This document shows positions 1 through 7,390 of a stretch of DNA of 7,390 nt, piece after piece. The stretch comes from a virus (lineage: Duplodnaviria; Heunggongvirae; Uroviricota; Caudoviricetes). Below the pieces are notes generated by a model. It was given only the letters and a program-made list of their open reading frames with translations. It searched no databases and was not told the origin of the DNA. Both the position numbers and the translations under genes were made by a program. Positions within the stretch are counted from its first letter, which is position 1. Each line of letters begins with the position of its first letter. The DNA lies in the IMG/VR virus record IMGVR_UViG_2695420478_000017, positions 1-7,390 of that record; one strand, 5' to 3'.

Positions 1-24
1 CGGCAGAAGCAGAAAAAGCTTATT

Positions 25-570
25 ATGCTTCCATCGGAAACGATGATCTGGCAGCCTGAGTTCACAGATAAAACACTCTCCAGGAAACCCGGGGCGGTTC
101 AAACCGAAGAAGTGGACCAGCTGGCATCAAAGTTAATGGCTGCAAGTGAGGAACTTCAAAAGCTGGGATGTTCATTTTACTCATGCGATGTCAGTTCATG
201 TTCGATTTATCTGACTGTATCTGGAAGAAGGGTTGGCTGGCATTCATACGGAAAAGACGGCAACGGTGAAGATATATTGCTCCCTACCCCCGACAAAGAT
301 AAATGCATGTTTGACGCAGAACACAAAATAACAAAAAGGTTTGATGAAATCTGCGCATTGCAACAAAAACTTGAAGCCAGGAAAAAGGATATAGAATCAA
401 ACGTATGGGCTGCTTTGAACTCAGTCACAACAGTTAAGCGACTTATTGAAGTTTGGCCTGAAAGCAAAGAGTTGCTACCAAAAGAAGCAGATAAAGCAAG
501 TGCAGCACTTCCTGCTTTACGGGTAGAAGATTTGAATAAGATGATTGGACTTCCTTCCGAGGCCGCATAA
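25..570 (+). CDS. Hypothetical protein, 181 aa from first ATG; start uncertain and possibly 5'-partial
   Basis: Long ORF with protein-like composition in the slot upstream of cIII where lambda carries ea10/ral. The frame is open back to position 1 and no strong SD precedes the ATG at 25 or 43, so the gene may begin upstream of the window. Product not recognised. Confidence 0.5.
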   Translation: MLPSETMIWQPEFTDKTLSRKPGAVQTEEVDQLASKLMAASEELQKLGCSFYSCDVSSCSIYLTVSGRRVGWHSYGKDGNGEDILLPTPDKDKCMFDAEHKITKRFDEICALQQKLEARKKDIESNVWAALNSVTTVKRLIEVWPESKELLPKEADKASAALPALRVEDLNKMIGLPSEAA

Positions 571-585
571 TCGGCCTTTATTTTT
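560..585 (+). terminator. Putative intrinsic terminator (stem aggccg/cggcct, 6-nt loop, then TTATTTTT)
   Basis: Hairpin at 560-577 followed by a T-rich tract at 578-585; it overlaps the stop codon of the upstream ORF. Confidence 0.4.
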
Positions 586-614
586 GGCATAAACAACAGA
601 ATAAACACTGCACT

Positions 615-642
615 GTGTATTCATTCCAACGAGTGAATACAC
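615..642 (+). other. Strong 12-bp inverted repeat / RNA hairpin, 4-nt loop, no U-tract
   Basis: gtgtattcattc (615-626) pairs with gagtgaatacac (631-642) with one G-U wobble; loop is caac. Not followed by a T run. Confidence 0.4.
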
Positions 643-704
643 GGAGCAATGTCGCTCGTAACTAAACAGGAGCCGACTTGTTCTGATTATTGGAAATCTT
701 CTTT

Positions 705-728
705 GCCCTCCAATGTGAGGGCTTTTTT
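705..728 (+). terminator. Intrinsic terminator (gccctc / caatgt / gagggc + TTTTTT)
   Basis: 6-bp GC-rich stem at 705-710 and 717-722, followed directly by six T at 723-728. Confidence 0.55.
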
Positions 729-794
729 ATATGCATACCAATAACGCTTCACTAGAGGCGTTTTCGTTATGTGTAAATAAATAAGGAGCACACC

Positions 795-959
795 ATGCAA
801 TATGCCATTGCAGGGTGGCCTGTTGCTGGCTGCCCTTCCGAATCTTTACTTGAACGAATCACCCGTAAATTACGTGACGGATGGAAACGCCTTATCGACA
901 TACTTAATCAGCCAGGAGTTCCCAAAAATGGATCAAACACTTATGGCTATCCAGACTAA
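795..959 (+). CDS. cIII: CIII, protease (FtsH) inhibitor that stabilises CII
   Basis: Translation [54 protein letters not shown] (54 aa) matches lambda CIII as recalled; SD TAAGGAG at 782-788. It is not in the ORF track as a separate ORF because it overlaps the frame-1 ORF 802-1071. Confidence 0.9.
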   Translation: MQYAIAGWPVAGCPSESLLERITRKLRDGWKRLIDILNQPGVPKNGSNTYGYPD

Positions 960-1071
960 ATTCACTATCGCCACTTTTATTGGTGATGAAAAGATGTTTC
1001 GTGAAGCCGTCGACGCTTATAAAAAATGGATATTAATACTGAAACTGAGATCAAGCAAAAGCATTCACTAA
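928..1071 (+). CDS. kil: Kil, host cell-division (FtsZ) inhibitor
   Basis: Internal Met of track ORF 802-1071 gives [47 protein letters not shown] (47 aa), matching lambda Kil; overlaps the cIII 3' end by 32 nt as in lambda. Confidence 0.85.
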
Positions 1072-1091
1072 CCCCTTTCCTGTTTTCCTAA
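1026..1091 (+). pseudogene. gam: Frame-disrupted remnant of the long-form Gam N-terminal extension
   Basis: ATG at 1026 encodes [18 protein letters not shown] then LFS-stop. The continuation [29 protein letters not shown] is readable in the GamS frame from about 1079. The two ATGs are 119 nt apart (not a multiple of 3). Confidence 0.6.
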
Positions 1092-1144
1092 TCAGCCCGG
1101 CATTTCGCGGGCGATATTTTCACAGCTATTTCAGGAGTTCAGCC

Positions 1145-1441
1145 ATGAACGCTTATTACATTCAGGATCGTCTTGAGGCTCAGAGCTGGGCGCGTCACTA
1201 CCAGCAGATCGCCCGTGAAGAGAAAGAGGCAGAACTGGCAGACGACATGGAAAAAGGCCTGCCCCAGCACCTGTTTGAATCGCTATGCATCGATCATTTG
1301 CAACGCCACGGGGCCAGCAAAAAAGCCATTATCCGTGCGTTTGATGACGATGTTGAGTTTCAGGAGCGCATGGCAGAACACATCCGGTACATGGTTGAAA
1401 CCATTGCTCACCATCAGGTTGATATTGATTCAGAGGTATAA
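1145..1441 (+). CDS. gam: Gam, short form (GamS, 98 aa), RecBCD inhibitor
   Basis: Translation [21 protein letters not shown]...[10 protein letters not shown] matches lambda Gam; strong SD AGGAG at 1133-1137, 7 nt before the ATG. Confidence 0.9.
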
Positions 1442-1446
1442 AACGG

Positions 1447-2217
1447 ATGAGTACAGCACTCGCAACGCTGGCAGGGAAGCTGGCTGAACGTGTCGGCATG
1501 GATTCTGTCGACCCACAGGAACTGATCACCACTCTTCGCCAGACGGCATTTAAAGGCGATGCCAGCGATGCGCAGTTCATCGCATTGTTGATCGTCGCCA
1601 ACCAGTACGGCCTTAATCCGTGGACGAAAGAAATTTACGCCTTCCCTGATAAGCAGAACGGCATCGTTCCGGTGGTGGGCGTTGATGGCTGGTCCCGCAT
1701 CATCAATGAAAACCAGCATTTTGATGGCATGGACTTTGAGCAGGACAATGAATCCTGTACATGCCGGATTTACCGCAAGGACCGTAATCATCCGATCTGC
1801 GTTACCGAATGGATGGATGAATGCCGCCGCGAACCATTCAAAACCCGCGAAGGCAGAGAAATCACGGGGCCGTGGCAGTCGCATCCTAAACGGATGTTAC
1901 GGCATAAAGCTATGATTCAGTGTGCCCGTCTGGCCTTCGGATTTGCTGGTATCTATGACAAGGATGAAGCCGAGCGCATTGTCGAAAATACTGCATACAC
2001 TGCAGAACGCCAGCCGGAACGCGACATCACTCCGGTTAACGATGAAACCATGCAGGAGATTAACACTCTGCTAATCGCCCTGGATAAAACATGGGATGAC
2101 GACTTATTGCCGCTCTGTTCCCAGATATTTCGCCGCGACATTCGCGCATCGTCAGAACTGACACAGGCCGAAGCAGTGAAAGCTCTTGGATTCCTGAAAC
2201 AGAAAGCCACTGAGTAG
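1447..2217 (+). CDS. bet: Bet (Red-beta) single-strand annealing protein, 256 aa; C-terminus 5 aa shorter than lambda Bet
   Basis: Translation matches lambda Bet from [26 protein letters not shown] to ...LGFLKQKA; it ends at TAG 2215-2217, while the lambda-position stop TGA at 2230-2232 is still in frame downstream. Confidence 0.93.
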
Positions 2218-2228
2218 AAGGTGGCAGC

Positions 2229-2909
2229 ATGACACCGGACATTATCCTGCAGCGTACCGGGATCGACGTGAGAGCTGTCGAACAGGGGGATGATGCATGG
2301 CACAAATTACGGCTCGGCGTCATCACCGCTTCAGAAGTTCACAACGTGATAGCAAAGCCCCGCTCAGGAAAGAAGTGGCCTGACATGAAAATGTCCTACT
2401 TCCACACCCTGCTGGCTGAGGTTTGCACCGGTGTGGCTCCGGAAGTTAATGCTAAGGCGCTGGCCTGGGGAAAACAGTACGAGAACGACGCCAGAACCCT
2501 CTTTGAGTTCACTTCCGGCGTTAATGTTACTGAATCCCCGATCATCTATCGCGACGAAAGTATGCGCACCGCCTGCTCTCCCGATGGTTTATGCAGTGAC
2601 GGCAACGGCCTTGAACTGAAATGCCCGTTTACCTCCCGGGATTTCATGAAATTCCGGCTCGGTGGTTTCGAGGCCATAAAATCGGCTTACCTGGCCCAGG
2701 TGCAGTACAGCATGTGGGTGACACGAAAAGATGCCTGGTACTTTGCCAACTATGACCCGCGTATGAAGCGTGAAGGCCTGCATTATGTCGTGGTTGAGCG
2801 GGATGAAAAGTACATGGCGGGTTTTGACGAGATGGTGCCGGAGTTCATCGAAAAAATGGACGAGGCACTGGCTGAAATTGGTTTTGTATTTGGGGAGCAA
2901 TGGCGATGA
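2229..2909 (+). CDS. exo: Exo (Red-alpha) 5'-3' dsDNA exonuclease, 226 aa
   Basis: Translation [50 protein letters not shown]...[10 protein letters not shown] matches lambda Exo with a few substitutions; SD AGGTGG upstream. Confidence 0.93.
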
Positions 2910-3088
2910 AGCATCCTCACGATAATATCCGGGTAGGTGCGATCACTTTCGTCTACTCCGTTACAAAGCGAGGCTGGGTATTTCCCGGCCTTTCTGTTAT
3001 CCAAAATCCACTGAAAGCCCAGCGGCTGGCTGAGGAGATAAATAATAAACGAGGGGCTGTATGCACAAAGCATCTCCTGTTGAGTTAA
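2906..3088 (+). CDS. Small protein, lambda orf60a-like (60 aa from ATG 2906; alternative ATG at 2900 gives 62 aa)
   Basis: ORF directly after exo; ATG 2906 overlaps the exo stop as ATGA, and length and position match lambda orf60a as recalled. The sequence match itself is from memory and unverified. Confidence 0.55.
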
Positions 3089-3252
3089 GAACGAGCATTG
3101 AGATGGCACATAGCCTTGCTCAAATTGGAGTCAGGTTTGTGCCAATACCAGTAGAAACAGACGAAGAATTTCATACGTTAGCCACATCCCTTTCGCAAAA
3201 GCTGGAAATGATGGTGGCGAAAGCAGAAGCAGATGAGAGAGACCTGGTATGA
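3061..3252 (+). CDS. Small protein, lambda orf63-like (63 aa)
   Basis: 63-codon ORF overlapping the previous gene by 28 nt, same geometry as lambda orf63/orf60a; translation [63 protein letters not shown]. Confidence 0.6.
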   Translation: MHKASPVELRTSIEMAHSLAQIGVRFVPIPVETDEEFHTLATSLSQKLEMMVAKAEADERDLV

Positions 3253-3332
3253 CAACCACTGAATGCATTTTTCTGGCAGCGGGCTTCATATTCTGTGTGC
3301 TTATGCTTGCCGACATGGGACTTGTTCAATGA
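3249..3332 (+). CDS. Candidate small hydrophobic (membrane) peptide, 27 aa
   Basis: ATG 3249 overlaps the orf63-like stop (ATGA) and its stop TGA 3330-3332 overlaps the next ATG at 3329 (ATGA). Translation MTTTECIFLAAGFIFCVLMLADMGLVQ has a hydrophobic core consistent with one transmembrane helix. Too short for the ORF track. Confidence 0.35.
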   Translation: MTTTECIFLAAGFIFCVLMLADMGLVQ

Positions 3333-3544
3333 CACCTCAGCAAGAAAACGCCCTTCGCAGTATTGCCCGTCAGGCTAATTCTGAAATCAAAAAAGCCAGA
3401 CAGCAGTTTCCGGATAAAAACGTCGATGACATTTGCCGTAGCGTACTGAAGAAGCACCGCGAAACGGTAACGCTGATGGGATTCACACCGACTCATTTAA
3501 GCCTGGCGATCGGCATGTTAAACGGCGTCTTTAAGGAACGGTGA
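3329..3544 (+). CDS. Hypothetical protein, 71 aa (track ORF 3263-3544 trimmed to the coupled internal ATG)
   Basis: ORF in frame with track ORF 3263-3544; start at 3329 preferred because it is translationally coupled to the upstream peptide. Translation MTPQQENALRSIARQANSEIKKARQQFPDKNVDDICRSVLKKHRETVTLMGFTPTHLSLAIGMLNGVFKER. Product not recognised. Confidence 0.45.
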   Translation: MTPQQENALRSIARQANSEIKKARQQFPDKNVDDICRSVLKKHRETVTLMGFTPTHLSLAIGMLNGVFKER

Positions 3545-3566
3545 GCATGAAAAACAAAATCATCAT

Positions 3567-3590
3567 GGAGCTACAGGCTCCTTTTTTATT
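3567..3590 (+). terminator. Putative intrinsic terminator (ggagc / tacag / gctcc + TTTTTTATT)
   Basis: 5-bp GC-rich stem at 3567-3571 and 3577-3581, then six T at 3582-3587. Confidence 0.4.
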
Positions 3591-3642
3591 ATTCGCATTC
3601 ACCCTCAAGCGTATTAACCAACAATTCAGGGATTAATGAAAG

Positions 3643-3864
3643 ATGGCAGACATCATTGATTCAGCATCAGAAATTGAAGAATTACAGCGCAACACAGCAA
3701 TAAAAATGCGCCGCCTGAACCACCAGGCTATATCTGCCACTCATTGTTGTGAGTGTGGCGATCCGATAGATGAGCGAAGACGCCTGGCTGTTCAGGGTTG
3801 TCGGACTTGTGCAAGTTGCCAGGAGGATCTGGAACTTATCAGTAAACAGAGAGGTTCGAAGTGA
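3643..3864 (+). CDS. TraR/DksA-family C4-type zinc-finger protein (73 aa), likely RNA polymerase secondary-channel binder
   Basis: Translation carries CCECGDPIDERRRLAVQGCRTCASCQ, i.e. two Cys pairs (CxxC...CxxC) near the C-terminus with an acidic N-terminal segment, the layout of TraR-like phage and plasmid proteins. Confidence 0.7.
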   Translation: MADIIDSASEIEELQRNTAIKMRRLNHQAISATHCCECGDPIDERRRLAVQGCRTCASCQEDLELISKQRGSK

Positions 3865-4631
3865 GCGAAATTAATTATCAGGCACTGCGTGAAAAGGCAG
3901 AAAAAGCAACTAAAGGAAGCTACATCGTAGGGCATACATCTGTTAATCGGCATGGCAATTTAACAGGAGTTTTTGTTTGTCAAAAATGGAAAGGAGAACC
4001 CGGTGGCGTGATTGCAGAATGTCACGTTAACTGCCTGGTTGAAACAGATGCTCAGGCTTATGCAAACGCTGAATTCATAGCAGAGGCTAACCCGGCTACC
4101 GTGCTGGAACTGCTGGATGAACGGGAAAGAAACCAGCAATACATCAAACGCCGCGACCAGGAGAACGAGGAGATTGCGCTTACGGTTGGGAAGCTGCGTG
4201 TTGAGCTTGAAGCAGCAGAGAACAACCTTATTGATAGTGAATGCCATGTTGCTGAACTGGAAGAAGCTCTACGCGATAAGCAGGCGTTACTTGAAGCCTC
4301 AGAAAAGCGCAACGCAAAATTACAAAGCGAGAATGCATACATCCGCAACCGGTACAAAGAACTGGACCTATTAATCGGGAAAAACATTCTGGTCATGCAG
4401 GCTGCCATTATCGAATGGCAGGCAACTGGCGACGCTAAGAGCGGACTAGCATGGATTTATAACACACTGTTTGGCCCTGGCGAATTACCGGACGAATCTG
4501 AGAAAGATGCTCAGGCCTACTTTAATCGCAAATATGCACCGATTGACGAAAATCTCATGGAGCTTCACAAGTGGTTTTGGGAACAAAGTGAAGCCGAGCG
4601 CGCCGCTGGCATTCGCATCAAAGGAGAGTGA
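3861..4631 (+). CDS. Ea22-like protein (256 aa), GTG start overlapping the upstream stop
   Basis: N-terminus MSEINYQALRE, central LELLDERERNQQYIKRRDQENEEIALTVGKLRVELE coiled-coil segment and C-terminal AGIRIKGE resemble lambda Ea22 as recalled; GTGA overlap with the TraR-like gene; SD-like AGAGAGG upstream. Confidence 0.7.
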   Translation: MSEINYQALREKAEKATKGSYIVGHTSVNRHGNLTGVFVCQKWKGEPGGVIAECHVNCLVETDAQAYANAEFIAEANPATVLELLDERERNQQYIKRRDQENEEIALTVGKLRVELEAAENNLIDSECHVAELEEALRDKQALLEASEKRNAKLQSENAYIRNRYKELDLLIGKNILVMQAAIIEWQATGDAKSGLAWIYNTLFGPGELPDESEKDAQAYFNRKYAPIDENLMELHKWFWEQSEAERAAGIRIKGE

Positions 4632-4632
4632 T

Positions 4633-5280
4633 ATGAGCGCTATAACCAAAGATCGACTACTGACAATCAAGCAGTGGCGCGAAACATACGGACCGGGTAG
4701 CAACGTTGTACTGCCAGCAGAAGAAGCGGAAGAACTGGCACGAATTGCGCTGGCATCACTGGAACGCGAACAGATTCGCCACGAGCATGCCAAATGGTCT
4801 GACTCCACATTTGGCTGCGTTGGCCCCATTGGTCCGCTGAAACATCTCTCAAAAGAGGCACTGGAAGCCGCAGCCGAACCAGACGATCTTAGCGAGTGGG
4901 CTGATATGCAGTTTCTGTTGTGGGATGCACAGCGCCGTGCTGGCATCAGCGATGCTGAAATTAACGTTGCTATGGAAGATAAATTGAAGATCAACATGGA
5001 GCGCCAGTGGCCTGAGCCAAAAGATGGTGAGCCTCGCTTGCACATTAAAGAACCCGGCAACTCTCCGGTAACTCCTGATGGTTGGATAAGCTGTAGTGAG
5101 CGAATGCCGGATACCAAAACAGCCGTTCTTGTTGCCAGGGAGTTTGACAGGAAAGGTGACTGGCGAATGAAATGGGCGACTTACATCCCGGGGCATCCTG
5201 ACGCTAATGATGGGTGGATAATTCCTGGTGCGTCGTGGAAACCGTCACACTGGATGCCGCTACCAGAGCCTCCCCTTTGA
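4633..5280 (+). CDS. Two-domain protein (215 aa): MazG-like all-alpha NTP pyrophosphohydrolase-like N-domain (DUF550-type) plus DUF551-like C-domain
   Basis: Track ORF 4471-5280 trimmed to ATG 4633, which has SD AAGGAGAG and sits 2 nt after the Ea22-like stop. N-terminal motifs (EEAEEL, HAKWS, STFG, LKHLSKEALE, EWAD, INMERQW) and the C-terminal WISCSERMPD ... SHWMPLPEPP pattern match those families as recalled. Confidence 0.6.
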   Translation: MSAITKDRLLTIKQWRETYGPGSNVVLPAEEAEELARIALASLEREQIRHEHAKWSDSTFGCVGPIGPLKHLSKEALEAAAEPDDLSEWADMQFLLWDAQRRAGISDAEINVAMEDKLKINMERQWPEPKDGEPRLHIKEPGNSPVTPDGWISCSERMPDTKTAVLVAREFDRKGDWRMKWATYIPGHPDANDGWIIPGASWKPSHWMPLPEPPL

Positions 5281-5376
5281 TAGCTAAGCTTATACATATC
5301 TTTTACATCAGCAATCTATTGTTAATCTCCAATCAATGTTACGTTGTCATCTCTCTCATGCTTTGGAGGTAGTGAT

Positions 5377-5556
5377 ATGTCTTGTCCAAAATGCGGTTCT
5401 GGAAATATTGCAAAAGAAAAAACAATGCGTGGATGGTCTGATGATTATGTGTGCTGCGATTGCGGATACAACGACTCTAAAGACGCATTTGGAGAGCGTG
5501 GTAAAAACGATTTTGTCAAAATTAATAAAGAACGCGAAGGCAACGAAAAAAGCTAA
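5377..5556 (+). CDS. Small zinc-ribbon protein, 59 aa (CPKCG ... CCDCG)
   Basis: Track ORF 5344-5556 trimmed to ATG 5377, which has a strong SD GGAGG at 5365-5369 (7-nt spacing). Two CxxC-type motifs: MSCPKCGSGN ... YVCCDCGYN. Confidence 0.55.
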   Translation: MSCPKCGSGNIAKEKTMRGWSDDYVCCDCGYNDSKDAFGERGKNDFVKINKEREGNEKS

Positions 5557-5619
5557 TTTATTTATTCATATATGAAAACAATGTAACCAATATTCGAATT
5601 GAAGAACTGAAAGAACACC

Positions 5620-5644
5620 AAGCCGCCTGATGGCGGTTTTTTTT
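5620..5644 (+). terminator. Intrinsic terminator (ccgcc / tgat / ggcgg + 8 T)
   Basis: GC stem at 5623-5627 and 5632-5636, extendable by a G-U and two A-U pairs, followed by TTTTTTTT at 5637-5644. Confidence 0.6.
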
Positions 5645-5658
5645 ATTGGAGACAAGAA

Positions 5659-6003
5659 ATGTCAGATTTGGCTATGAAGGTTTTGAAATGGCAATCGACT
5701 GGCGATGTTGGCATCAGTAGCGCAACTCTTGCCTCAATCGCATGTGGACTGAAAAAGAATATCTATGGTCATCACTTCGGCGCTCCCCATGACGCAGCCG
5801 ATTTCAGACGATGCGTTGCACTTGTTGAGCAGATTCCAGAAATCAGAGATTCATTCAACAAGGTTGCAAAGCGCGTTCCGGCATTCAAAGGAATCCTCAA
5901 CGAATGGGATTCCCTCGTTGCTCTGTTGAAGTCTGAAATGAAGATACACGGAAACAAAGCACCAGAGACTTACAGAAGAATCAGCGAGCTACGCAAGGAC
6001 TAA
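5659..6003 (+). CDS. Hypothetical protein, 114 aa, unknown function
   Basis: Clean ORF with SD GGAGA at 5648-5652 (6-nt spacing); bracketed by a terminator upstream and a hairpin plus terminator downstream. Product not recognised. Confidence 0.6.
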   Translation: MSDLAMKVLKWQSTGDVGISSATLASIACGLKKNIYGHHFGAPHDAADFRRCVALVEQIPEIRDSFNKVAKRVPAFKGILNEWDSLVALLKSEMKIHGNKAPETYRRISELRKD

Positions 6004-6018
6004 CCATGAAATAACACC

Positions 6019-6037
6019 GCCTCACACTCGGTGAGGC
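6019..6037. other. Hairpin (gcctcac / actcg / gtgaggc) just after the stop of the 114-aa gene
   Basis: Perfect 7-bp inverted repeat with a 5-nt loop; no clear U-tract on either strand. Confidence 0.3.
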
Positions 6038-6072
6038 CTGTTCATTGCTCAATGATATCCAGACCTACCATC

Positions 6073-6096
6073 GCCGCATCAATGCGGCTTTTTCTT
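6073..6096 (+). terminator. Putative intrinsic terminator (gccgca / tcaa / tgcggc + TTTTTCTT)
   Basis: 6-bp stem at 6073-6078 and 6083-6088, followed by a T-rich tract at 6089-6096. Confidence 0.5.
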
Positions 6097-6108
6097 GCGT
6101 GTAATTGC
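6095..6108 (+). promoter_or_regulatory. CII-binding direct repeat TTGC-N6-TTGC, the pI-type activator site for int
   Basis: TTGC at 6095-6098 and at 6105-6108 (TTGCGTGTAATTGC), just upstream of the xis ATG at 6121. This is the arrangement known for lambda pI, whose transcript starts inside xis. Confidence 0.55.
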
Positions 6109-6120
6109 GGAGACTTTGCG

Positions 6121-6339
6121 ATGTACTTGACACTTCAGGAGTGGAACGCTCGCCAGCGACGCCCAAGAAGCCTTGAAACAGTTCGTCGATGGGTGCGCGA
6201 ATGCAGGATATTCCCTCCTCCGGTTAAGGATGGAAGAGAGTATCTGTTCCACGAATCAGCGGTAAAGGTTGACTTAAATCGACCAGTAACAGGTAGCCTT
6301 TTGAAGAGGATCAGAAATGGGAAGAAGGCGAAGTCATGA
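6121..6339 (+). CDS. xis: Excisionase Xis (72 aa)
   Basis: Internal Met of track ORF 6031-6339 gives MYLTLQEWNARQRRPRSLETVRRWVRECRIFPPPVKDGREYLFHESAVKVDLNRPVTGSLLKRIRNGKKAKS, matching lambda Xis; 3' end overlaps the int start. Confidence 0.9.
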   Translation: MYLTLQEWNARQRRPRSLETVRRWVRECRIFPPPVKDGREYLFHESAVKVDLNRPVTGSLLKRIRNGKKAKS

Positions 6340-7390
6340 GCGCCGGGATTTACCCCCTAACCTTTATATAAGAAACAATGGATATTACTGCTACAGGGAC
6401 CCAAGGACGGGTAAAGAGTTTGGTTTAGGCCGAGACAGGAGGATAGCAATCACTGAAGCAATACAGGCCAATATTGAGTTACTCTCAGACAGCGGACGCA
6501 AATCACTAATAGACAGAATTAAAGGCGGTGACGCAATCACTCTTCATGTGTGGCTTGACCGATATGAAACAATCCTCACCGAAAGGGGGATCAGGCCGAA
6601 AACTCTACTCGACTACGCCAGCAAAATCAGGGCAATCCGAAGAAAATTGCCGGACAAACCGCTCACTGACATATCAACGAAAGAAGTGGCAGCAATGCTA
6701 AACACCTACGTAGCAGAAGGTAAAGCAGCTTCCGCAAAATTAATCAGGTCAACCCTTGTTGACGTTTTTCGTGAAGCAATAGCCGAGGGGCATGTGGCAA
6801 CGAATCCGGTAACAGCAACCCGTACAGCAAAGTCAGAAGTAAGGCGCTCAAGGCTGACAGCTAATGAGTATGTCGAGATTTACCATGCAGCCGAACCTCT
6901 CCCTATCTGGCTAAGGCTGGCGATGGATTTGGCCGTCGTTACAGGGCAGAGAGTCGGCGATTTGTGCAGAATGAAATGGTCAGACATAAACGACAACCAT
7001 CTTCACATTGAACAGAGTAAAACAGGGGCTAAACTCGCCATTCCGCTAACGCTAACGATTGACGCGCTCAATATCTCATTGGCTGATACACTACAGAAAT
7101 GCAGGGAGGCCAGCAGCAGTGAAACTATAATCGCATCAAAGCATTACGATCCTCTTTCCCCGAAAACAGTATCAAAGTATTTTACAAAGGCGAGAAATGC
7201 ATCTGGACTCTCATTTGATGGAAACCCGCCAACATTCCATGAACTGCGTAGCCTGTCAGCGAGGCTATACCGGAACCAGATTGGCGATAAATTTGCTCAA
7301 CGTCTTCTCGGGCATAAATCAGATTCAATGGCGGCGCGGTATAGAGACAGCCGTGGACGGGAATGGGACAAAATTGAAATCGACAAATGA
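6317..7390 (+). CDS. int: Tyrosine-family site-specific integrase Int (357 aa)
   Basis: N-terminus MGRRRSHERRDLPPNLYIRNNGYYCYRDPRTGKEFGLGRDRRIAITEAIQANIEL matches lambda Int; C-terminal catalytic signature present (VVTGQRVGDL, HELRSLSARLY, LLGHKSDSMAARYRD). Stop codon is the last 3 nt of the window. Confidence 0.95.
   Translation: MGRRRSHERRDLPPNLYIRNNGYYCYRDPRTGKEFGLGRDRRIAITEAIQANIELLSDSGRKSLIDRIKGGDAITLHVWLDRYETILTERGIRPKTLLDYASKIRAIRRKLPDKPLTDISTKEVAAMLNTYVAEGKAASAKLIRSTLVDVFREAIAEGHVATNPVTATRTAKSEVRRSRLTANEYVEIYHAAEPLPIWLRLAMDLAVVTGQRVGDLCRMKWSDINDNHLHIEQSKTGAKLAIPLTLTIDALNISLADTLQKCREASSSETIIASKHYDPLSPKTVSKYFTKARNASGLSFDGNPPTFHELRSLSARLYRNQIGDKFAQRLLGHKSDSMAARYRDSRGREWDKIEIDK

Follow-up and report, generated by a model that had tools for sequence, protein, structure and literature searches.

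Here we report that the first 570 nucleotides of the window, by which we mean the whole 7,390-nucleotide stretch of phage DNA that was analysed, are very probably the downstream junction of an IS629 insertion in an Nmad5 gene, this copy of the gene being a pseudogene; that account as a whole is the best explanation of the region. A preliminary description of the same DNA had taken it for one unrecognised 181-aa gene, a replacement in the ea10/ral slot. The reading frame itself stands: ORF calls place an ATG-initiated ORF of 181 aa at 25-570 on the + strand, upstream of cIII, with its frame (frame 1) open back to base 1. However, the single gene dissolves into an IS629/Nmad5 fusion of which only the part from 102 to 570 is phage gene, truncated at its 5′ end. 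IS629 entered a lambda-like E. coli prophage, striking the gene that directly follows N in its leftward early (pL) operon. The insertion duplicated the three bases AAC and cut the Nmad5 gene into a 5′ and a 3′ fragment.

The IS629 junction and the divided Nmad5 gene

At least 2,000 plasmid records carry an IS629/IS1203 copy whose right end is 100% identical to window 1-100, and several of these copies bear the annotation 'IS629 ORF2' or 'IS3-like element IS1203 family transposase'. The right end of this IS3-family element occupies 1-101 on the + strand. Bases 3-59, read in another frame than the 181-aa ORF, hold the last 19 codons of the transposase OrfB (C-terminal residues ...AEAEKAYYASIGNDDLAA, stop at 57-59), and the right terminal inverted repeat follows, ending ...CCCGGGGCGGTTCA at 101. 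Similarity to lambdoid phage and E. coli prophage DNA sets in abruptly at base 101. Because the IS629 match covers 1-100 and the lambdoid similarity begins at 101, IS sequence makes up the ATG at 25 together with the first 26 codons, and also the open frame before them. The ATG and the 25 codons after it lie in a frame that the transposase does not use, and these 26 IS629-derived codons (MLPSETMIWQPEFTDKTLSRKPGAVQ) are joined in frame to residues T53-A207 of Nmad5. In the full contig described below, the frame that is open to base 1 shuts 84 nt further upstream, still within IS629. Read from the sequence, then, the 181-aa ORF arises from a chance in-frame ATG inside the IS629 end, lying upstream of an Nmad5 3′ fragment. 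The fragment itself runs from 102 to 570 on the + strand and corresponds to gene nucleotides 156-624, with T53-A207 read from base 103 and the stop codon at 568-570. Its first three bases, AAC at 102-104 (gene nucleotides 156-158), are the right copy of the target-site duplication; the left copy stands just before IS629, outside the window.

An exact-protein look-up places the ORF on two NCBI assemblies (loci L005 and L006). Contig JAOTHS010000057.1 of GCA_036925215.1 (L005) is identical to the window over 6570/6570 overlapping bases and shows the whole arrangement: N, Nmad5 nucleotides 1-158, IS629, Nmad5 nucleotides 156-624 (window 102-570), cIII, kil, gam, bet, exo and onwards to xis and int. 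The element lies at 4768-6077 of that locus, is exactly 1310 bp long and has imperfect terminal inverted repeats with TG...CA ends (TGAACCGCCCCGGG...CCCGGGGCGGTTCA). End to end it is 100% identical to copies annotated as IS629 OrfA/OrfB, so it is IS629 (also annotated IS1203) itself without any difference, its last 101 bp alone lying inside the window. In this element, OrfA (4822-5148, 108 aa) and OrfB (5145-6035, 296 aa) occupy different frames and overlap by 4 bases, and the Pfam models HTH_Tnp_1, HTH_21 and rve match the called product. In IS629, OrfA and OrfB, the latter with the DDE/rve domain, would be joined by frameshifting.

The element has the same orientation as the operon and entered after Nmad5 gene nucleotide 158. 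Its junctions read ...GAAAAC|TGAACCGCC...(1310 bp)...GGCGGTTCA|AACCGAAG, against GAAAAC|CGAAG in the uninterrupted allele; AAC flanks IS629 on both sides in the former and is single in the latter, which makes a clean 3-bp duplication. The start of the gene does lie outside the window, as the preliminary description had suspected from the open frame, but it is the start of an IS629-split gene, found in L005 1,468 nt upstream and beyond the element. The 5′ fragment outside the window comprises 52 native codons followed by 16 IS-encoded codons (68 aa).

Nor is the protein an unrecognised one. The window ORF matches the Pfam family PF18757 with 173.9 bits (E 6.1e-51; gathering threshold 27 bits for the whole-protein score) and PHROG 1965 with E 1.6e-60, and RefSeq names intact copies as Nmad5. 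The family match is confident, though the family it leads to is not biochemically characterised, so the idea of an uncharacterised gene gives way only in a weak sense. Full-length members have about 190-215 aa, and their profile match extends from position 1-4 to about 205; the window ORF covers only positions 45-206 of 206, and the 68-aa upstream fragment of L005 matches positions 1-55 (E 3.3e-13). Since the missing part of the profile is found upstream of IS629, the locus is a disrupted Nmad5 member, not an intact one.

The uninterrupted allele is found in E. coli SCU-104, which is identical to window 101-800 at 700/700 positions. Its protein WP_000095078.1 (207 aa; RefSeq name 'Nmad5 family putative nucleotide modification protein') has residues 53-207 that are 100% identical to the translation of window 103-567, and the copies in mEp235 (gp037), HK244 and Stx phages are about 90-97% identical to the window fragment. 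The intact copies share with the window copy their position after N and before cIII. They differ from it in that the window copy is without residues 1-52 and has 26 IS-derived codons instead, its 5′ part standing 1.3 kb off across IS629.

A repeat such as IS629, matched at 27,947 places in E. coli genomes, is also where an assembler may go wrong, and a contig mis-joined at the repeat would leave a similar join between IS and gene. In keeping with such an artefact, the exact 45-nt junction gave 0 matches in a scan of a species-representative genome collection and none among complete E. coli genomes. On the other side, both junctions lie within one 24-kb contig, around an element of exactly 1310 bp with a perfect 3-bp duplication; in the intact allele one half of the gene continues exactly where the other ends; and the identical IS629/Nmad5 junction is present in the second, independent assembly (L006). 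We regard a mis-join as extremely unlikely and keep to a real insertion of IS629 in the Nmad5 gene.

Both components, the intact allele and the exact chimeric ORF are already in public databases. The chimera is called there as P0001, the same ORF as that at 25-570 on the + strand. The NCBI product has 182 aa and begins MMLPSE..., so that its start would be the non-canonical ATT one codon earlier, at 22-24; NCBI names it an Nmad5 family protein and does not flag it as an IS-disrupted pseudogene. Annotation pipelines thus still call the IS629/Nmad5 chimera a protein, and a caution follows for similar cases: edge-open ORFs beside repeated elements can be IS-fusion artefacts. For the window itself little hangs on the finding, which comes down to an ordinary IS insertion into a prophage gene already catalogued.

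Nmad5 in the mosaic interval between N and cIII

Downstream of the remnant, the window carries cIII, kil, gam, bet, exo, the exo-xis genes, xis and int. The flanking genes from cIII to exo are lambda-like, as had been stated: window 733-3909 is 97.1% identical to lambda 33522-30347. Between the remnant and this block, window 573-733 matches lambda 34082-33920, the spacer between ral and ea10, and at 733 the match jumps to lambda 33522. It is this jump that shows ea10 to be deleted in the window. A 31-aa ORF at 649-744 (MSLVTKQEPTCSDYWKSSLPS...) is the conserved leader of longer variable lambdoid genes of 170 aa (L067) and 356 aa (L031), and looks like the remnant of a mosaic or moron junction.

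Further along, the window departs from lambda in the exo-xis region at 4633-5280. The 215-aa protein encoded there fuses a dATP/dGTP pyrophosphohydrolase domain, PF04447 (E 2.3e-41), to DUF551 (E 2.5e-21). The exo-xis region is otherwise known for cell-cycle and host-modulating genes; the 215-aa protein is a predicted nucleotide-pool enzyme. It is followed by a zinc-ribbon ORF at 5344-5556 with a sub-threshold match to the Lar restriction-alleviation family (22.4 bits, cut-off 28.6) and likewise sub-threshold matches to HVO_2753-like zinc fingers, and by a 114-aa ORF at 5659-6003, just upstream of xis, with no Pfam match. The xis/int region at 6073-7390 is 75.6% identical to lambda DNA, compared with 97% for cIII-exo; the integrase module is judged to be of another type than lambda's, and the attachment site probably is too.

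The placement of the gene in the variable interval between N and cIII was borne out when gene content was compared at the locus among viral contigs, in the 80 closest lambdoid relatives. Nmad5 follows an N-type antiterminator in 65 of these 80 loci, and what comes after it is mosaic, with 16 kinds of downstream neighbour. The ORF is also unlike Ea10, as the preliminary description had it: neither lambda Ea10 (122 aa) nor lambda Ral (66 aa) has sequence similarity to it, the best BLASTP match against the two being E 0.9 over 11 residues. What the three have in common is the N-to-cIII interval of the pL operon and non-essential accessory status. The further claim that the gene replaces ea10 or ral does not hold. 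Nmad5 has ea10 directly after it in 11 of 75 loci, and in one lambdoid locus (L096) ral lies 37 nt upstream of it; in the window ea10 is simply deleted. Because of this co-occurrence, Nmad5 is not a positional allele of ea10/ral; it directly follows N, in a stretch of mosaic gene content.

The family as a whole is large. A profile search returned 3,477 representatives of 50%-identity clusters at E ≤ 1e-3, of which 1,865 also pass E ≤ 1e-10; stand-alone proteins of 190-215 aa make up almost the whole set. The gene is present in 211 of 5,426 complete E. coli genomes, in 209 of them with 80% or more of its length as a single piece, and in 209 complete E. coli genomes the intact copies bear the RefSeq label 'Nmad5 family putative nucleotide modification protein'. 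The phages that carry it are varied and include lambdoids (HK244, mEp235, Stx1/Stx2), N4-like phages, Yuavirus (M6-like), Vibrio phages, eiAU, Hungariovirus and Dhillonvirus. A literature search for the PhiR12/mEp235 recombinant phages carrying Nmad5 found nothing, and a mention of 'NMAD' in connection with DefensePredictor does not specify Nmad5.

The name, short for 'nucleotide modification associated domain 5', reportedly goes back to Iyer et al. in 2013 (cited as ref. 29 in PMC11846954), who are said to have coined it by gene-neighbourhood inference from thymidine-hypermodification clusters; 'nucleotide modification' in the family name is guilt by association. In unrelated phages Nmad5 sits in early modules for DNA replication and nucleotide metabolism. 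One such neighbourhood runs RNR, ThyX, dUTPase, AAA, Nmad5 and RNase T, another runs DUF2800 nuclease, Nmad5, helicase, Dam and primase-polymerase, and in an N4-like phage thymidylate synthase is followed by Nmad5. In Yuavirus, Nmad5 stands between aGPT-Pplase1 and a thymidylate-synthase homologue (see also PMC9476957). In the lambdoid loci compared, no modification enzymes adjoin Nmad5.

Coding potential of the remnant and recurrent disruption

Whether the split copy still yields a working protein depends on its translation and on what it has lost. Shine-Dalgarno pairing upstream of the ATG at 25 amounts to −1.9 kcal/mol, which is essentially none, where the native Nmad5 start reaches −6.0 and the starts of cIII, gam, bet, exo and int lie between −5.8 and −8.5 kcal/mol. 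A promoter scan of window 1-1200 gave no sigma-70-like promoter and no sign of an outward IS promoter. The lost residues 1-52 hold the near-invariant positions R5, L6, I14, A39, R43 and G48 (alignment A1), and the family keeps its N-terminus, the profile match beginning at position 1-4 in nearly all of the best 150 representatives. An intact homologue modelled with AlphaFold2 (mean pLDDT 84.6, pTM 0.71) has helices at 8-22, 24-47 and 50-72 and a pLDDT of 91-96 for residues 11-60, so that the lost residues are the first two helices of a helical bundle and among its most confidently modelled parts. Because the IS-borne ATG has no ribosome-binding site and the conserved, family-wide residues 1-52 are gone, the IS629-split copy is most likely a pseudogene. 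Counting against that reading are the in-frame fusion, the retention of the invariant C-terminal motif and the CDS call by PGAP.

The motif in question, SVTTVKRLIEVWPE (S159-E172), lies at 421-462 on the + strand and is the most conserved of the family, with invariant columns S159, V160, L166, V169, W170, P171 and E172 in alignment A1. The window ORF thus retains both C-terminal motifs, LNSVTTxK[RK]LxEVWPE (415-462) and DLNxxIG (529-549). The 3′ fragment would still be transcribed in the N-antiterminated pL transcript, and low-level translation may occur.

The same gene has been struck more than once. In Sp5-type Stx2a-converting phages of E. coli O157:H7, for which complete phage genomes are deposited, IS629 sits in Nmad5 after gene nucleotide 107, in the opposite orientation and with a GAA duplication. 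This is the same gene and the same IS, 51 bp from the site in the window. It is an independent event, with another site, another orientation and an Stx backbone in place of a lambda-like one. The element lies at 1196-2505 in both L015 and L016, the latter with a second IS629 about 2 kb away, and at 1792-3101 in L003. In this last locus, from Stx2_12E092, the IS is flipped and the foreign left flank is the sequence found about 540 bp upstream of IS629 in L015, indicating a putative IS-mediated rearrangement. The supposition that some 48 Stx2a phages carry the L003 type of junction was rejected: in them IS629 is oppositely oriented and the target duplication is intact, and L003 is a rearranged derivative. 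P0007 presents a third kind of N-terminal disruption of Nmad5.

A rival reading has the chimeric ORF translated, starting at the ATG or ATT within the IS or at a codon further inside, into a functional or neo-functional N-truncated Nmad5 with its conserved C-terminal core. The rearranged junction in Stx2_12E092 is in frame with the same IS ATG, as is the fusion in the window; two in-frame cases of two, at a chance probability of 1/9, are no evidence. The ORF keeps motif S159-E172 and the C-terminal DLNxxIGLP, it is called as a CDS by PGAP, and an internal GTG at 112 has moderate SD-like pairing (−6.0). Yet the ATG at 25 pairs at −1.9 where real genes pair at −5.8 to −8.5 kcal/mol, a quarter of the protein is gone, including two high-confidence helices and six near-invariant residues, and members this short at the N-terminus are essentially always fragments. 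A functional protein made from the chimera is accordingly improbable in our judgement, and we retain the reading of a pseudogene.

At the end of the remnant, a predicted terminator-like hairpin, GAGGCCG-CATAAT-CGGCCTT with a T-rich run (TATTTTTGGC; 559-588, + strand), overlaps the Nmad5 stop codon. The same consensus scan gave 5 terminator-like sites in all in window 1-1200, against 1.3 expected; beyond the hairpin at the stop codon, two others lie at 705-722 and 743-762. On the minus strand, an antisense ORF of 133 aa (207-608) has no family match and was rejected as a gene, being treated as a shadow of the conserved + strand gene.

A possible role for intact Nmad5

The intact protein is small and mostly helical, with a pI near neutral and without a recognisable catalytic fold. 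Structure prediction, which had been proposed as a check, returned a helical model, and Foldseek found no match in the PDB at E ≤ 1e-3. Sequence searches of the PDB, with the single protein and with a profile, gave nothing below E 0.6, and BFVD returned only other unnamed or Nmad5 phage proteins. A scan of NCBIfam matched no model to the window ORF or to the intact protein P0003.

A genetic clue comes from Dhillonviruses, in which a single K-to-E change in nmad5 leads to escape from the Tmn defence (PMC11846954). The same study found that nmad5 is toxic to clone, and that its deletion gives a viable phage with Tmn sensitivity unchanged (PMC11846954). CDS6 of the Dhillonvirus SM_S22 is a true PF18757 member (E 1.2e-55), and its K296 aligns with R165 (codon 439-441 of the window), inside TTxK[R/K]LxEVWPE, in a column that is R or K in 26/26 sequences. 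The escape residue marks this motif as functionally sensitive, while the mechanism is not revealed by it. Family membership and the escape-residue motif are what the SM_S22 protein has in common with the window fragment. The two are otherwise distant: the SM_S22 protein is annotated with 334 aa, including an extra N-terminal extension of 80 residues, and its gene belongs to the head-gene module of a virulent siphovirus and is encoded on the opposite strand. In that genome (L097 5005-6216, minus strand) nmad5 overlaps the head scaffolding gene by about 200 nt, and the Pfam match starts at residue 81 (MRLTKDIK...). Because the match begins only there, the annotated start is probably too far upstream, and the published numbering (K296) is likely offset by about 80.

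The preliminary description had thought of a host-modulating or counter-defence function, and a ral-like accessory gene of the N-cIII hotspot for host takeover or counter-defence, rather than a DNA-metabolism factor, is one way to see Nmad5. Its place directly behind N in the early left operon, where gene content is highly mosaic and 16 kinds of neighbour follow it downstream, would suit such a gene, as would its being non-essential and toxic to clone; and a K-to-E change at the residue homologous to R165 is what lets Dhillonviruses escape Tmn. Against this, PADLOC gave no match at E ≤ 0.1 to any anti-defence or defence model for the window ORF or the intact P0003, and the protein is neither acidic nor DNA-mimic-like. 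Ral and Nmad5 stand together in one operon (L096), and the copies in lytic phages lie inside replication and nucleotide-metabolism clusters, not in anti-defence islands. Moreover, deletion of nmad5 left Tmn sensitivity unchanged, which makes the protein neither a Tmn inhibitor nor simply the trigger, and the window copy is disrupted anyway. On balance we consider a counter-defence gene of this kind rather unlikely.

Somewhat less doubtful, though still tentative, is that intact Nmad5 is a non-enzymatic binding or adaptor protein that acts early in infection, on phage DNA metabolism or in taking over the host, and whose interaction surface would be the invariant C-terminal motif; we infer this from the fold negatives and the gene neighbourhoods only. 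Intact Nmad5 is probably not itself a base-modifying enzyme. Given the name and the first description, it may have a non-canonical enzymatic or enzyme-activating role. Phage growth does not depend on it, since the gene is hit by IS629 in Sp5-type Stx2a phages and the Dhillonvirus deletion is viable.

The repeated IS629 hits raise the thought that lysogens are under selection against Nmad5, which could be toxic if its expression is leaky, or sensed by an abortive-infection system such as Tmn; on the same view, the in-frame C-terminal fragment kept in the window might even act as an altered-function variant. The events number only two or three, so that such selection cannot be told from target preference or neutrality, and we give this view very little credence. 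If it were true, a conserved early phage protein would be central to a phage-defence interaction. Nmad5 is a very widespread stand-alone early phage protein, one that has been named and comes with only one genetic clue, the escape from Tmn, and it is the intact copy of the gene, not the copy in the window, that is the sensible object of study.
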